From NCBI GenBank assembly GCA_016792665.1, contig JAEUKJ010000497.1, positions 1,490 to 65,489 on the forward strand: a stretch of 64,000 nucleotides of DNA. Direction: 5' to 3'. Below, piece after piece: positions 13,647 through 50,687 of the stretch. The DNA is from Deltaproteobacteria bacterium. Its GTDB lineage: Bacteria; Myxococcota_A; UBA9042; PHBI01. Position 1 is the stretch's first letter. Each line of letters begins with the position of its first letter. The position numbers were made by a program, and so were the translations under genes. Below the pieces are notes generated by a model. The model ran no database searches. It had not been told where the DNA came from and was given only the letters and a program-made list of their open reading frames with translations.

Positions 13647-13808
13647 CGACGCCGGCGCTCGGCGCAGCCGCGCGTGACCACGAACACGAGCGCGAGCGAG
13701 CCGAGATGCCGGCAAGGAGCGAGTGCCGTGAGTGACGAGGGGCACTCGAGTGCCCCGCAGGAACGAACGAACGAGCGACGACGCCGGCGCTCGGCGCAGC
13801 CGCGCGTG
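13647..13808. repeat. intergenic repeat element, copy A: perfect 30-bp direct repeats flanking a 102-bp core with a hairpin
   Basis: cgacgccggcgctcggcgcagccgcgcgtg occurs at 13647..13676 and again at 13779..13808. The core holds the hairpin GGGGCAC-tcga-GTGCCCC (13739..13756). About 70 bp of the core (13712..13785) are roughly 80% identical to 48406..48477. Confidence 0.8.
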
Positions 13809-13809
13809 C

Positions 13810-14802
13810 TCAGCCAACCAGGGGGAGCGAGACGCCGCGGCCCTGCTCACGAGCCCGCGCGACGAGGATGCGCGCGACGGCGAGGTCCTGCACGGCGAGG
13901 CCGGTCGAGTCGAAGAGGGTGATCGCTCCGGCCTCGGGCCGCGCCACGAGCTGCCCGTTCAGGACCGCGCCCAGCGAACCCGCGACCTGGTCTTCGCGCA
14001 GGTCGCCGTGATGGAGCGGCACGTTGACCTCACCCGAATGGAAGGCCTGGGCGGGGTCATCGACGAAGATGCGGGCCGAGACCGTGAGCGCGGTCTCGAG
14101 CTCCTGCTTGCCCTCGGCATCGGCGCCCATCGCGTTCAAGTGTGCGCCCGGGCGGACCATGCGGGCAAGGACGACGGGCTCGGCTCCCGGGGTGCTGGTG
14201 CACACGATGTCACACGCGGCCGCCTCCTCGACGCTGCCGACGCGCCCACCGAAGGCCTCGGCCATGGCGAGGGCGGCCTCGGGTCGGACGTCGGCGAAGA
14301 CGAGCTCGGTCACGTGCGGGTGGGTCACGCGGTGCGCCATGGCCATCGTGCGTGACTGGACGCCGGCGCCGACGAAGCCCAGCGAGCGCGCCTCGGGCCG
14401 GGCCAGCGCGCGCGAGGCCACGGCCGCGGCGGCTCCGGTGCGGATCGCGGTGAGCCAGGTCGCATCGAGGATGGCGAGGGGGCGGGCGGTCTCGGGATCG
14501 GAGTAGATGTAGACGCCCATGACGGCCGGCAGGCCGTGGCGACGCGGGTTCTGCGGATGCGAGTTGACCCACTTCACGCCGGCGGCACCGTCGAAGAACG
14601 CCGGCATGGCCCGGAAATCGCCAGCGTATTCGGGGAGATCCAGATAGACCTTGGGCGGCATGCGCGCGCGCCCCGCGGCGTGGGCCGCGAACGCCGACGC
14701 CACGGCGTCGACGACGGCGGGCATGTCGGTGAGCGCCTCGACGTCGGCGCGGGTGAGGATGAGGGTCTCGGGTATTTTTGCCATCGCTGCCATCTCTGCC
14801 AT
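13810..14802 (-). CDS. ornithine cyclodeaminase / mu-crystallin family enzyme
   Basis: ORF 13810..14856; the start is probably ATG 14802 or 14784. Family hallmarks: ILDATWLTAIRTGAAAAVASRALA, GFVGAGVQSR (Rossmann loop) and ITLFDSTGLAVQDLAVA. Confidence 0.8.
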   Translation of the reverse strand: MAEMAAMAKIPETLILTRADVEALTDMPAVVDAVASAFAAHAAGRARMPPKVYLDLPEYAGDFRAMPAFFDGAAGVKWVNSHPQNPRRHGLPAVMGVYIYSDPETARPLAILDATWLTAIRTGAAAAVASRALARPEARSLGFVGAGVQSRTMAMAHRVTHPHVTELVFADVRPEAALAMAEAFGGRVGSVEEAAACDIVCTSTPGAEPVVLARMVRPGAHLNAMGADAEGKQELETALTVSARIFVDDPAQAFHSGEVNVPLHHGDLREDQVAGSLGAVLNGQLVARPEAGAITLFDSTGLAVQDLAVARILVARAREQGRGVSLPLVG

Positions 14803-40167: not shown

Positions 40168-40308
40168 GAGGAACCCTAGGGATTCAGGCTGCTCAAAAAT
40201 GGCCAGATGCAAGGAGCCGGAAAGACAAGGAGTGAGGCGGGCTTGGGGCCCGCCGCAACGACGACTCCTTCCGAGCGACGCCGCAGATGGCCGTTTTTCA
40301 GCAGCCTG

Positions 40309-41463
40309 CTAGACGCGCATGGGCATGACGACGAACACCGCACCCGGCTCCGACGGAGAGGTCAGGACCGTCGGCGAGAACTCGTCGGTCATCTCGAAGA
40401 CGACCGACTCGCCCTTCACGACGCCGAGGACGTCGAGGAGGTAGTTGTAGTTGAAGCCGACCACCATGCCCTCGCCGCGGTAGTCGACGTCGAGCTCGTC
40501 GCGCCCCTCGCCGTAGTCGGGGTTCGACGCCGTGACGGCGAGCTTGCCCGGCGTGAGCTCGAGCTTGATGATGTAGGTCTTGTTCGAGGTGAGGATCGCG
40601 TTCTTGCGGATGGCGCGGGCGAGACGCTCACGCGGGACGACCACCTTCACCGGCGAGCTCTGCGGGATGACCCGCGAGTAGTCGGGGTAGTTGTCCTCGA
40701 TCTGACGCACCGAGAACACCGTGCCACCGGTCGCGGTCTTGCCCGCGCGGAAGAGGATGACCCCCTGCGCGAAGCCGACCTCGAGCGCGTCGGCGTCGCT
40801 CTCGAAGAGGCGCTTCACCTCGGTCACACCCTTCTTGTGGATGATGGCCGAGTACTGGTCCTTCTTGCCGATGCCGGCGACCTCGGCCTCGAGCTCGACC
40901 TTCGAGAGGCGATGGCCGTCGGTCGAGACCATCGTGAGCTTGGCGAGCCCGTCGGCCGACCCGGCGGTCACCTTGAAGAAGACGCCGTTCAGGTTCATGC
41001 GCGTCTCGTCCGAGGACATCGAGAACGCGGTCTTCTCGAAGAGATCACGCAGCGCCGACTTCGGAATGCGCAGCCACTTCGCGTCTTCCGGGATCTTCAT
41101 CTCCGGGAAGTCGGCAGGCGTCACACCGGCCAGCTTGAAGTAGGCACGACCGGCCGAGAGCTCGCTCCAGTCGTTGGGCAGCGCGCGCAGATGCAGCGGC
41201 GTCTCGTCGAGGTTCTTCACCACGTCGAAGAGGCTCTTGCCGTTGATGCAGGCGGAGCCGGGGACGATCACCTCGGCCGGGATCTCGGCCATGATGGTCA
41301 CGTCGTAGTCGGTGCTGACGAGGCGCGCGGTGCCGTCGGGCAGGCTCTCGACCAGGACATGGGCAAGGACGTTGCTCGTCGACTTCCTGTCGACGACACC
41401 CTGGGTCTTGTAGACCGCCCCGAGAAAGGTGGTGCGATCGAGTCTGAGCTCCAACGTGGCCAT
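40309..41463 (-). CDS. dnaN: DNA polymerase III beta sliding clamp
   Basis: 384 aa. The sequence runs MATLELRLDRTTFLGAVYKTQGVVDRKSTSNVLAHVLVE...VFVVMPMRV, a typical three-domain clamp pattern. Confidence 0.9.
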   Translation of the reverse strand: MATLELRLDRTTFLGAVYKTQGVVDRKSTSNVLAHVLVESLPDGTARLVSTDYDVTIMAEIPAEVIVPGSACINGKSLFDVVKNLDETPLHLRALPNDWSELSAGRAYFKLAGVTPADFPEMKIPEDAKWLRIPKSALRDLFEKTAFSMSSDETRMNLNGVFFKVTAGSADGLAKLTMVSTDGHRLSKVELEAEVAGIGKKDQYSAIIHKKGVTEVKRLFESDADALEVGFAQGVILFRAGKTATGGTVFSVRQIEDNYPDYSRVIPQSSPVKVVVPRERLARAIRKNAILTSNKTYIIKLELTPGKLAVTASNPDYGEGRDELDVDYRGEGMVVGFNYNYLLDVLGVVKGESVVFEMTDEFSPTVLTSPSEPGAVFVVMPMRV

Positions 41464-47312: not shown

Positions 47313-48349
47313 CCGCTCCCACCACGTTCACCGGCAAGAATCTCGAGACGGCGCTGCAGAAGGCGTCGCAGGCCACGGGGCTCGCCCCCGAGGCGATCAA
47401 GTACGAAATCCTCGCCGGCAAGACCGGGGGCTATGCGCTCATCAAGGTGATCGGTCAGGCCGCTGCGGTCCCGACCGGACCCCTGGTCGAGAGCCTCTCC
47501 GGCGACCCGAACGCGGCTGCTCCCGCGCGTGCCGATCGCGGCGACCGTGGTGATCGTGGCGACCGTCCGCCGCGTGATCGCGACCGTGGTGGCGATCGTG
47601 GCCCGCGCCCCGAGCGCAGCGGCGACCGCGGTGGTGATCGCGGCCCGCGCCCCGAGCGCAGCGGCGACCGTGGCCCGCGTCCCGACCGTGGTGACCGCGG
47701 CGATCGCGGCCCTCGCCCCGAGCGCGGTGGTGATCGTGGCCCGCGTCGTCGCGATGACCGCGACGAGCTCTTGCCGGTGCCGCAGGACGGCCCGACCGCC
47801 GTCACCTTCGAGGTGGCCGCCGAGGGACCGCTCACCGCGTTCGGCGAGAAGGTCCGCGACGTGCTCGTCGCCACGCTCGAGAAGATGGGCTTCGGCATGA
47901 AGCTGGTCTTCCTCGAGGGCGCCGACGAAGTGCAGGTCGACCTCGTCAGCGGGGTCTACCACGACGTGCTCCTCGCCAAGGAGCTCGAGCTGCTGGACGC
48001 CCTCGAGCACCTCGTCGAGAAGGTCGCCATCGGACACGGCAACCTCCCCGAGGGCGCGCCGAAGAAGAAGGTCCACCTCGACTCGAACGGCTTCCGCGCC
48101 AAGGCCGACCTCGACCTCGCGCACTCGGCCCGCGAGATGGCGGACCGCGCCATCGCCGACCAGCGCGTCTTCAAGCTCGGCCCGCTCGATCCCCGCGCCC
48201 GTCGCGTGGTTCACCTCACGCTCCGCGAGTACGCCGGCGTCGTGACCCGCTCCGAGGGCGAGGGCGTCTTCCGCCGCGTCTGCATCATCCCGAAGAGCGC
48301 CGAGGCCACCGACAACACGTCGGTCCAGGACGACCACTCGGGCGAGTGA
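47309..48349 (+). CDS. jag: Jag/KhpB RNA-binding protein (Jag_N, KH, R3H) with a DRG-repeat insert
   Basis: ATG 47309 overlaps the yidC stop (ATGA). The N-terminus MTAPTTFTGKNLETALQKASQATGLAPEAIKYEIL is Jag_N-like. The C-terminus has the R3H-like GPLDPRARRVVHLTLREYAGVVTRSEGEG..RRVCI. Confidence 0.85.
   Translation: MTAPTTFTGKNLETALQKASQATGLAPEAIKYEILAGKTGGYALIKVIGQAAAVPTGPLVESLSGDPNAAAPARADRGDRGDRGDRPPRDRDRGGDRGPRPERSGDRGGDRGPRPERSGDRGPRPDRGDRGDRGPRPERGGDRGPRRRDDRDELLPVPQDGPTAVTFEVAAEGPLTAFGEKVRDVLVATLEKMGFGMKLVFLEGADEVQVDLVSGVYHDVLLAKELELLDALEHLVEKVAIGHGNLPEGAPKKKVHLDSNGFRAKADLDLAHSAREMADRAIADQRVFKLGPLDPRARRVVHLTLREYAGVVTRSEGEGVFRRVCIIPKSAEATDNTSVQDDHSGE
47531..47768 (+). repeat. in-frame tandem repeats encoding a (G)DRGPRPER(S)GDRG low-complexity linker
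   Basis: DNA units such as ggcccgcgccccgagcgcagcggcgaccg recur. The protein reads DRGDRGDRGDRPPRDRDRGGDRGPRPERSGDRGGDRGPRPERSGDRGPRPDRGDRGDRGPRPERGGDRGPRRRDDRDE. Confidence 0.8.
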
Positions 48350-48492
48350 CGCCGGGGATGAACCTTCGCGAGGCGCCGTGGGAGGCCGCTCGCGAGGGTT
48401 CAGCCGCAAGGAACGAGCGAAGCGAGCGACGAGGCGCACTCAGGTGCGCCGCAGGAGGGAGCGAGCGCGTGACGCCGCGGATGAGCCCTCGC
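48346..48492. repeat. intergenic repeat element, copy B: imperfect 24-bp direct repeats flanking a ~99-bp core with a hairpin
   Basis: gtgacgccggggatgaaccttcgc (48346..48369) and gtgacgccgcggatgagccctcgc (48469..48492) match at 21/24 positions. The core holds the hairpin GGCGCAC-tcag-GTGCGCC (48433..48450) and is about 80% identical to copy A over roughly 70 bp. The element fills the gap between the convergent jag and envC-like stops. Confidence 0.75.
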
Positions 48493-48502
48493 CCGCGGCC
48501 TC

Positions 48503-49732
48503 CTAGCGGAACCAGGACATTGGGTCCATGGCGACGCCATCCTTCCGCAGCTCATGGTAGAGGCGAGGGCCGAAGAAGCTCTCGCTCTCGCCCATGATGC
48601 CGAGGGTCTCGCCGGTCTTCACCTTCGCGCCGACCTCGACCGAGATCTCGGCCAGGTGCGCGTAGATCGACGTGTAGCCCATCGTGTGGTCGAGGATGAC
48701 CACGCGGCCGAGGCCCTGGATCCACCCGGTCCACGCGACCCATCCCCAATAGATGGCGCGCACGGGGACCTTGCCGTCCTTCGGGGTCCGCGCCGGGACC
48801 AGGTGGATGCCGCGCCACATCGAGCGAATGCCCTTGTAGTTGCGCGTGCCGTAGCCACCGACCAGGTCGGGGTTCAGGATCGGCACGGCCAGCCCACCGC
48901 GCGTCTCCTCGAAGTACATGCGCTTGCGATCGGTCGGGGCCGCCGCGCTGAGCTCCTTCACCTTGGCCGCCAGCGTCTCGTCGAGCTTCTCCATCTCGGC
49001 CGCGAACGCCGCGTAGAACTCGGGCTCGTTGACGACGGCGGTCTTGACCGCGGCCTGCTCTTCCTGGTCCCACGCGATCTGCTGGCGCAGCCGCTTCATC
49101 GTCTCACGCGTCCGCGCGAGGTTGGTCGTTCGTCGCTCGAGGTCGGCCTTGGCCTTCCTCCACGCGTCGAGTGTCTCTGCATAGCGACGGATGCGCGCGC
49201 GATCGGCCTCGGCCAGAAGAGCCCGCGCCGAGCGCCGCGCCTCGAAGGTGAGGAAGCCGGTCGCATCCGTGAGCAGATCGCCCAGCGCGGGAGCGCTCAG
49301 GCTGCGACCGAGCAGCGCGAGCCGCGTACGCGTGAGGTTGCGGTCGTGCTCGAGGCCGGCCGTGCGCGCCTCGAAGCGCGTCGTCGTCGCCGCGAGGTCC
49401 AGGTCCAGGCGTTGCTCGAGTCGGGTCAACGACGTGAGCTCTTCCTCGCGCCGATGGAGGTCTTGGTCCAGGCGGTCGCGCGCCGCGAGGATCGACGCCT
49501 CGGGCCTCAAGAGACGGCGGATGTCGGCGCTTGGCGTGCGCGTCACCAGGGCCGCCGGCTCGGGCACGACCAAGGTCTCGAGGTCGGGCTCCTCGGGCTT
49601 GGCCCTGGCACCCCCACTGCCCACGGTGACCAGTGCCACCAGCGCAAGACCGCGGATCAATGCCGAAGGCCTGGCAGAGCCAGGCTGCCCTCGGCTGATC
49701 AGTGCGTGGCTCCGCCAGGCCTTGGGTGGCAT
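48503..49732 (-). CDS. EnvC-like coiled-coil protein with a degenerate LytM/M23 domain (murein hydrolase activator-like)
   Basis: ATG 49732 gives MPPKAWRSHALISRG...LALVALVTVG (signal). Long coiled-coil segments follow. The C-terminus is M23-like (VVILDHTMGYTSIYAHLAEISVEVGAKVKTGETLGIMG...GPRLYHELRKDG), but the HxH motif reads YH and the HxxxD motif is not evident. Confidence 0.75.
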   Translation of the reverse strand: MPPKAWRSHALISRGQPGSARPSALIRGLALVALVTVGSGGARAKPEEPDLETLVVPEPAALVTRTPSADIRRLLRPEASILAARDRLDQDLHRREEELTSLTRLEQRLDLDLAATTTRFEARTAGLEHDRNLTRTRLALLGRSLSAPALGDLLTDATGFLTFEARRSARALLAEADRARIRRYAETLDAWRKAKADLERRTTNLARTRETMKRLRQQIAWDQEEQAAVKTAVVNEPEFYAAFAAEMEKLDETLAAKVKELSAAAPTDRKRMYFEETRGGLAVPILNPDLVGGYGTRNYKGIRSMWRGIHLVPARTPKDGKVPVRAIYWGWVAWTGWIQGLGRVVILDHTMGYTSIYAHLAEISVEVGAKVKTGETLGIMGESESFFGPRLYHELRKDGVAMDPMSWFR

Positions 49733-49742
49733 CACGCCGACC

Positions 49743-50687
49743 TCAGCGCGCATCGCGAGCACCCTTCGCGTTGGCCTCGGCCGGCTTTCCCCGGGGTCGC
49801 AGCCCACGCCGCTCGAGCCCGCGCAGCCCGCCCAGCAACGCCAGCCCGACGCCGCCCACGACGGCCCACGCAATGTAGGGAGGCCCGAGCGGCCCTGCCC
49901 CACCGGCCCCAGGCAACAGGGTCGCCAGCCGCCCGAGAGGGCCCTCGACATACAGGCCGACCGCGATGGCCGCGGCCGCCGCCATGAGGCCGATGAGCGC
50001 CGCGTAGATCACATGGCGCGCGAACAGCCAGCGCGGCGTCGCGCCCAGCGCCAGATAGAGGTCGAGCTCGTCACGGCGGGCCAACACCGCCGCGCTCACC
50101 AGGAGGTAGATCGCGAGGACGCCGACCAGCAGCGCCATCGCCGCGAGCAAGATCCCGACGAGCCGCCCCGCCTCCCCCGCCGCGAACACGAAGCGCAGGT
50201 GCCGCACGTCGAAGGGCACGTCCAGGACACCCTGGACCTCGGCGATGCTCTTCACCTTGGCGACCAGCGTGTCGAGCTCGGCCTCGGACGCGAGCGGCCC
50301 GCGCTCGACGGTCACCTTGGCCAGCCCACCCATCGGGAAGACCTGGTCATCGAGCCCTTCCAAGAGCTCCTCGCCGAGCACCGACGCGAGCTCCCCGCGC
50401 TGGGCCTTGGGTCCCACCCACTCGACCGACCTCACGCCCGGGACGGCCGCGACGCGCGTCAGGACGTCCTTGGTCTGGGCCTCGTCGAGCGCCGGATCGA
50501 GGCTCGCGCGCAGGACCAGATCGGCCTCGAGCGCCGACACCGTCGCGTCCACCCGCCCCGAGAGCCACATCGCCAGCGCCGCCAAGACCAAGCCCGCCGC
50601 CAGGGCGAGCGCCGTCAGGACACTCGCGATGGGCCGCGCGAAGAACATCGCCAGGGCATCGCGCACATGGACCGCCAGGTGACGCAT
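49743..50687 (-). CDS. ftsX: cell division permease-like protein FtsX
   Basis: 314 aa with 4 TM helices and a periplasmic domain between TM1 and TM2. It lies immediately downstream of ftsE, with a 1-nt TGATG overlap. Confidence 0.8.
   Translation of the reverse strand: MRHLAVHVRDALAMFFARPIASVLTALALAAGLVLAALAMWLSGRVDATVSALEADLVLRASLDPALDEAQTKDVLTRVAAVPGVRSVEWVGPKAQRGELASVLGEELLEGLDDQVFPMGGLAKVTVERGPLASEAELDTLVAKVKSIAEVQGVLDVPFDVRHLRFVFAAGEAGRLVGILLAAMALLVGVLAIYLLVSAAVLARRDELDLYLALGATPRWLFARHVIYAALIGLMAAAAAIAVGLYVEGPLGRLATLLPGAGGAGPLGPPYIAWAVVGGVGLALLGGLRGLERRGLRPRGKPAEANAKGARDAR

Follow-up and report, generated by a model that had tools for sequence, protein, structure and literature searches.

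We analysed a 64,000-nucleotide stretch of a deltaproteobacterial genome (the window) and found that the spacer between its convergent jag and M23-peptidase genes consists of one complete unit and a truncated second unit of a dispersed, non-coding and probably MITE-like repeat family. A family unit is about 125-135 nt long; inverted repeats at its two ends pair to close a long, interrupted hairpin, within which lie conserved purine-rich loops and a short GC apical hairpin. Given its copy-number bursts, patchy cross-phylum spread and fast turnover, the best reading is that the family behaves as small mobile DNA and not as a dedicated regulatory gene. It is apparently undescribed so far, with members in several bacterial phyla. 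We found no description of this hairpin family in the literature on myxobacterial MITEs and intergenic repeats. Rfam 15, at its gathering score, gave no match in the window or in three related loci; copy B, the copy in the jag/M23 spacer, gave only chance-level matches (E ≥ 0.39), and a low-GC member gave none.

Copies in the window and plan of the unit

Copy B lies between two genes whose stops face each other. The jag gene, which encodes R3H and Jag_N domains, ends on the plus strand with TGA at 48347-48349, and the M23-peptidase (EnvC-like) gene occupies 48503-49951 on the minus strand. The initial annotation had described an element filling this gap, with a left repeat that begins within the jag stop codon, and both points held when sequence and domains were checked: family sequence takes up the whole gap of 48350-48502. 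The left repeat (48348-48375, plus strand) repeats the "gacgcc + 3' arm" segment and represents an additional, truncated unit, whose first bases overlap the jag stop. Bases 48360-48372 of this truncated unit are able to pair with 48389-48401, which would give an alternative hairpin.

The complete unit is a 127-nt rod-like hairpin on the plus strand at about 48379-48505, with an interrupted 26-bp closing stem, purine-rich internal loops and an apical hairpin. The 5' arm of the closing stem (48379-48407) comprises the segments 48379-48389, 48392-48402 and 48404-48407, with covariation in helices 1 and 2, and the 3' arm (48477-48505) comprises 48477-48480, 48482-48492 and 48495-48505. In the computed fold, 48379-48389 pairs with 48495-48505, 48392-48402 with 48482-48492, and 48404-48407 with 48477-48480. 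Between the arms lie the 5' purine-rich internal-loop region (AAGGAACGAGCGAAGCGAGCGACGA, 48408-48432), in which the family alignments show conserved GCAAGGAR and GAGG motifs, the apical hairpin GGCGCAC-tcag-GTGCGCC (48433-48450), and the 3' internal-loop region (48451-48476) with the conserved motifs CGCAGGAG and GTGACGCC. The final three bases of the 3' arm are the complement of the TAG of the M23 gene, so that this stop (48503-48505) sits within the base of the hairpin. The inverted-repeat ends had been overlooked, and the element had been ended at 48492 when it continues to 48505. The plus strand folds with -82.2 kcal/mol (z = -6.3), a stability reached by none of 200 shuffles. In genome searches copy B scored E = 1.4e-12 with nhmmer, and 97.5 bits with E = 5.7e-19 with the covariance model. 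No terminator-like site and no U-tract were found at copy B.

The window holds two further full units on the plus strand. Copy A, which had been described together with copy B, was recovered at 13648-13809; its full unit spans 13681-13811 and ends 2 nt into the stop (13810-13812) of a minus-strand ornithine-cyclodeaminase-family gene, and sequence comparison places a truncated upstream unit at 13648-13677. Copy C, found with both nhmmer and the covariance model, had not been reported; it lies at 40179-40311, fills the dnaN-recF spacer, ends on the TAG of the minus-strand dnaN gene (40309-40311) and stops 11 nt ahead of the recF start codon. The arms of A, B and C are mutually unrelated in sequence, and within each copy the 5' and 3' arms are complementary. 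The apical hairpins of A (GGGGCAC-tcga-GTGCCCC) and B are as first described, with a third pair of G:C in A and C:G in B.

The plan of direct repeat, core and direct repeat that had been proposed for A and B did not survive the comparison with other members; the true plan is two inverted arms that close a long hairpin. The 30-mer taken as a flanking repeat of copy A is the family-consensus 3' hairpin arm and occurs in dozens of copies, and the upstream "repeat" of A, like that of B, belongs to a truncated neighbouring unit. Units of the family pile up head-to-tail and leave partial units behind, which explains the direct repeats that were noted; full tandem arrays and solo arms are common, and in 26 of 92 units (full tandem arrays included) the unit's own 3' arm recurs within the 75 nt upstream. 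Three other accounts of this architecture were rejected. The flanking 28-30-nt direct repeats are not target duplications, since the 30-mer is the family's own 3' arm; insertion of the core alone into existing host terminator hairpins, which might explain locus-specific arms, is excluded by identical arms in dozens of copies; and a retro-element-like 5' truncation is excluded because units truncated at the 5' end and at the 3' end both occur.

Some members carry additional or exchanged segments. The genome contains 14 occurrences of a 25-nt module, GGGACCTGCGGCCCCGCGCCCCGCG, all of them within members of the hairpin family (outside the window, for example, at C439:2200 and on contigs C235, C608, C575, C714, C648, C149 and C429). 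In units with differing arms, and in either orientation, this module takes the place of the apical stem's 3' half or of the 3' loop; it has the appearance of a nested mini-insertion or of a module that can be exchanged. On contig C597 (10104-10260), a unit with standard A-type arms encloses an unrelated interior of about 110 nt, which suggests that arms and core can be exchanged between units. In Desulfatirhabdium-type MAGs, a small separate arm-like palindrome, GACTTTTTGCGAnnCCAT..ATGGnnTCGCAAAAAGTC, precedes each unit at five loci (L039, L068, L081, L036 and L066); a further conserved block, ccgaaaagcacggg, sometimes stands before the palindrome in this subfamily, and the mosaic clusters recall BIMEs.

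Size, pairing and turnover of the family

We searched the genome to which the window belongs (7.25 Mb, 789 contigs, 70% GC). Iterated nhmmer returned 141 hits on 100 contigs, and a covariance model (R1) built from 62 units of this genome (alignment A2) recovered at least 104 units, many of them at contig ends. The initial annotation had proposed a structured element family on the strength of two copies; a genome-wide covariance model, which it had suggested building, brings the number to 104, and together with the nhmmer hits and the fold of copy B (z = -6.3) this puts the family far beyond chance. A chance similarity between two GC-rich spacers can be practically dismissed. The 12-mer GCAAGGARCGAG is by itself not significant, as 36 of 100 shuffles yield at least its 2 matches, so this part of the shuffle control went against the proposal; the whole element, in contrast, is significant, with full-length covariance-model matches at E = 1e-17 to 1e-26 and hundreds of copies in several genomes, and these already refute chance. 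The interior of about 75 nt is the most conserved part of the unit. In the cross-genome alignments, GCAAGGAG, GAGGCGTAC..GTACGCCGCA, GACGA and CGACGCCGCAG are common to all members, and the interior is conserved across phyla from 46% to 81% GC.

The pairing statistics show that the hairpin is maintained across copies. In a structure-blind MAFFT alignment of the 62 units of this genome, 84.1% of cells were paired compared with 66.2% in shuffles, and with slid partners the same alignment gave 26-47%. Two-sided changes were present in 422 cells against 145 in shuffles, the covariation score was 0.443 against 0.152, and none of 500 shuffles reached the observed percentage of paired cells or the covariation score. 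For 31 units from about 20 genomes the corresponding values were 91.9% against 62.9% paired and 0.679 against 0.179 for covariation, in an alignment that was fitted to the model and thereby favours the structure. Covariation was strong in every helix. The apical stem was 98.7-99.1% paired across the family, with five stem variants, and at pairs 67/79 and 68/78 the types AU, GC, UA and CG all occur; the compensatory change first noticed between A and B is thus one of many. These statistics show that the hairpin is kept, and not why, because the copies share a common descent and one arm of a palindrome can serve to repair the other. For such a sequence, compensatory changes are therefore no proof of selection on structure, as hairpin-templated repair can yield them in the absence of selection. 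Under symmetric scoring, G.U wobbles modestly outnumbered A.C on the purine-rich strand (34 to 16 across genomes, 43 to 29 in this genome). On the structure-blind alignment the ratio was 93 to 65, driven by two subfamily positions, and this leaves the strand assignment ambiguous.

Copy number and distribution vary widely. The congener G001 carries at least 81 units and the complete congener G002 carries 6; 27 of 41 relatives have none, and in a Myxococcota sample a match was found in 3 of 151 genomes. Two Desulfatirhabdium-type genomes of 3.7 Mb each hold about 140-200 units apiece, and searches for the arm sequence gave 427 and 284 occurrences in them, compared with 2-4 for a control pattern. 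Scanning named genomes with a pattern and then applying the covariance model, we identified full-length members in low-GC (46-59%) MAGs assigned to "Deltaproteobacteria", Thermodesulfobacteriota, Desulfatirhabdium, Smithellaceae and Acidobacteriota. Near-identical copies sit in unrelated flanks.

Comparison of related genomes revealed rapid turnover. Of 28 gene ends that bear an element in G001, only about 4-6 have one in the genome analysed here as well, and about 75-80% of loci differ between congeners. Presence and absence at orthologous sites were seen between species of one genus and of one family, and in filled/empty pairs the unit begins 0 nt after the stop. An exact-protein look-up for near-identical strains gave no match. 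At the dnaN stop, a unit is present in this genome and in G006, which belongs to another genus, and the site is empty in five relatives. Where the dnaN unit is present (in G006, locus L157), the stop is TAG followed by CAGG, and CCTAGG stands a few bases past the far end; the five relatives without it have a TGA stop and a 3-25-nt spacer. The jag/M23 spacer is occupied by copy B in this genome, by two units in G001 and by a reduced unit in G006; the two G001 units differ in their arms and have the same rare core variants. In G002 the spacer is empty of the element and contains a plain, ordinary GC hairpin, gaaggggcgcc..gggcgcctcttc.

One further locus, L184, shows a difference within a gene pair. 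In the genome analysed here (contig C592) the two genes share an overlap of TTGA, suggestive of translational coupling; their G001 counterparts are separated by a family unit, and there the downstream gene starts at an ATG 4 nt past a second TGA. The insertion thus appears to have uncoupled an overlapping gene pair.

Placement at stop codons

The association with gene ends, which the initial annotation had raised from two copies, is real and much stronger than could be seen from the window. The fixed end of the unit is the 3' end on the purine-rich strand, which lies 0-8 nt from the stop of an opposite-strand gene, so that the purine-rich strand is antisense to that gene. With conservative gene calls, a converging gene stop lay within 8 nt of the 3' model end in 56 of 84 units of this genome and of the other end in 4 of 84 (p = 9e-13). 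The corresponding counts in G001 were 28 of 41 and 2 of 41, and about 10 of 25 units from other phyla had the same placement. The orientation bias is roughly 14:1. Since the fixed end adjoins the stop of the opposite-strand gene, copy B belongs to the M23-peptidase gene, toward which it is oriented, and not to jag. TAG is over-represented among the unit-adjacent stops (24 of 56, compared with 19% genome-wide). In the most recently expanded subfamily (MAG156, Desulfatirhabdium), only about 3-4 of 16 units are stop-adjacent.

Nature of the family and alternative explanations

Several known element classes share features with this family. ERIC/IRU elements of Enterobacteria and Vibrio are imperfect palindromes of about 127 bp. 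They are similar in size and in that the whole unit forms one long imperfect hairpin; they are intergenic, co-transcribed and near gene ends, vary greatly in copy number among related species, and have variants with internal insertions. They differ in that they have no sequence relation to the present family, which has conserved purine-rich loops, copy-specific arms and a fixed end on stops, and whose hosts are Myxococcota, Desulfobacterota-type bacteria and Acidobacteriota. MITEs of the IS5/PIF-Harbinger type, which include the IS1031 and IS427 groups, generate a 3-bp T-N-A or YTAR duplication. The likeness here lies in small size, lack of coding capacity, terminal inverted repeats, many dispersed copies, stop-codon triplets, tandem pile-ups and the TGA on both sides of two young G001 subfamilies. 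In contrast to such MITEs, the terminal repeats of the present family are not conserved in sequence within a genome, the orientation bias is strong, a duplication has no statistical support in the genome analysed here, and no IS5-type transposase with matching ends was found.

Integron attC sites are imperfect inverted repeats of 57-141 nt with R''/R' core sites (RYYYAAC/GTTRRRY) that form cassette arrays served by IntI. The family resembles them in inverted-repeat size, in conserved structure with variable sequence, and in position on or at the stop of an upstream ORF; that attC acts as one folded strand is a further likeness. The attC definition does not fit, however, as the unit ends have no core sites, the interior is conserved, and units are dispersed, standing singly beside housekeeping genes such as dnaN and jag. 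REPs are 20-40-nt palindromes with a GTAG or CGTC head, and a RAYT gene is flanked by REPs (PMC3733652); a REPIN consists of two REPs around a non-conserved spacer (PMC3733652, PMC3116915). REPs, BIMEs and REPINs are, like the present units, extragenic, hairpin-forming, present in high copy, clustered with partial and solo units, and located at gene 3' ends. The family falls outside the REP/RAYT definition, as its unit measures about 130 nt, its interior is conserved and no Y1 transposase (PF01797) was found in the genome. In its shape and behaviour the family resembles hairpin MITEs of the ERIC or Correia type, and we regard it as an unusual version of an already known class of element.

MITE traits are evident in the family: its units are short and non-coding, many dispersed copies sit in unrelated flanks, and terminal inverted repeats are present as arms that pair over about 26 bp, with a sequence that varies between copies with compensation. 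We propose that units are mobilised in trans by some enzyme and would insert at stop-codon-like T-N-A sites, possibly with a 3-bp duplication. Once inserted, a unit would make up the 3' tail of the gene's transcript, where it could fold into a highly stable rod hairpin that would serve as a 3'-end barrier or terminator-like structure, and the complementarity of the arms would be kept either by selection on the hairpin or by hairpin-templated repair. In the two young G001 subfamilies, TGA stands on both sides of the unit in 14 of 18 and 5 of 8 copies, and TCA stands between units of arrays in the genome analysed here. These brackets and spacers possibly reflect duplication of a 3-bp T-N-A target at stop codons, of the kind made by IS5-type MITEs. 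In this genome no significant signal of a target duplication was detected, one G001 copy has TAA on the gene side and TGA on the far side, and the G001 brackets could be element-borne sequence instead of a duplication. Two features speak against the MITE-like reading: the arms vary within one genome yet stay complementary, which is unusual for terminal repeats bound by a transposase, and an orientation bias of this strength would not follow from a DDE enzyme with a symmetric T-N-A target alone.

Searches for a partner enzyme were negative. Neither an autonomous element nor a transposase bounded by matching ends came to light, which is weak evidence because MAGs often lose IS copies, and pairing short motifs for long autonomous versions was too noisy at 70% GC. 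An IS5-type partner was rejected, as PF01609 is absent from the element-rich G000 (the genome analysed here), G006 and G179, and three DDE loci elsewhere have no arm matches. A RAYT/REPIN link was also rejected, since PF01797 is absent from G000 and G024 and the nine Y1 transposases of G010 are accompanied by no elements. An all-against-all BLAST of flanking ORFs for a recurrent neighbouring gene gave only ORFs that overlap the repeat itself.

An alternative is that the unit is a host-selected gene-end RNA module, in which the rod hairpin, within an mRNA 3' end or as a convergent transcript, terminates transcription or blocks 3' exonucleases, spread is secondary, and the stems covary as the RNA fold is selected. 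We regard this as unlikely as an account of the family; a role for the hairpin at RNA 3' ends is plausible. Units directly on stops in fixed orientation, in two genomes and in other phyla, are what such a module would show, as are the strong covariation in every helix and the one-strand excess of G.U over A.C across genomes, which is modest. The ordinary GC hairpin that occupies the element-free G002 spacer points the same way, and the inner stem of low-GC and C-type members resembles a bidirectional terminator, being preceded by A5-6 and followed by T5 on both strands. B and A-type units, however, have no U-tracts and no terminator-like match, and the strand that folds better is antisense to the adjacent gene. 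Units also lie inside operons, with copy C only a few bases ahead of recF. The patchiness within the phylum (3 of 151 genomes), the difference at most loci between congeners, and copy numbers between 6 and more than 80 in a single genus would be unexpected for a host module, as would the small share of stop-adjacent units in the MAG156 subfamily, the youngest expansion.

The same placement can be read at the level of single-stranded DNA, with the folded strand recognised by shape by an HUH enzyme (IS200/IS605 or RAYT-like) or by a recombinase similar to integron integrase, and with strand-specific insertion 3' of a short target such as TGA(G). This reading, which we consider quite improbable, would account for arms that vary in sequence and are conserved in structure, for conserved unpaired bases, for the strict orientation to flanking TGA(G) with a matching TTGAG that ends the far tail, and for the failure to find a consistent target duplication. 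Wobbles of the G.T type lean to one strand, and the unit sits on a stop codon with its folding strand antisense to the gene, as attC sites do. It is countered by the distribution of Y1 transposases, of which none was found in G000 or G024 and nine in G010, which has no elements. The attC R'/R'' consensus (GTTRRRY) is missing from the units, which are scattered by core genes and form no cassette arrays; the GTAG or CGTC head that defines REPs is likewise missing (PMC3733652). A broader proposal, to which we give low credence, is that these are structure-defined mobile hairpins that cross phyla: some enzyme would recognise the loops and apical stem of the folded single-stranded DNA, not the ends, and insert strand-specifically exactly 3' of stops, or alternatively many copies may have been adopted by hosts as gene-end RNA modules. 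The MITE-like reading remains the probable one.

The family accounts for many of the "structured" spacers and assembly breaks in GC-rich myxobacterial MAGs, and it makes up roughly 0.5-0.7% of the two Desulfatirhabdium-type genomes. Stop-adjacent hairpins of this kind should not be taken as gene-specific regulators. An ordinary terminal-repeat transposon does not jointly predict paired but changing arms, an interior shared across phyla and a stop bias of roughly 14:1. The family models (R1; alignments A2 and A5) offer a concrete starting point in the search for the enzyme. Should the hairpin have an additional effect at mRNA 3' ends, its units would amount to mobile gene-end modules that rewire the read-through of operons, as between dnaN and recF.
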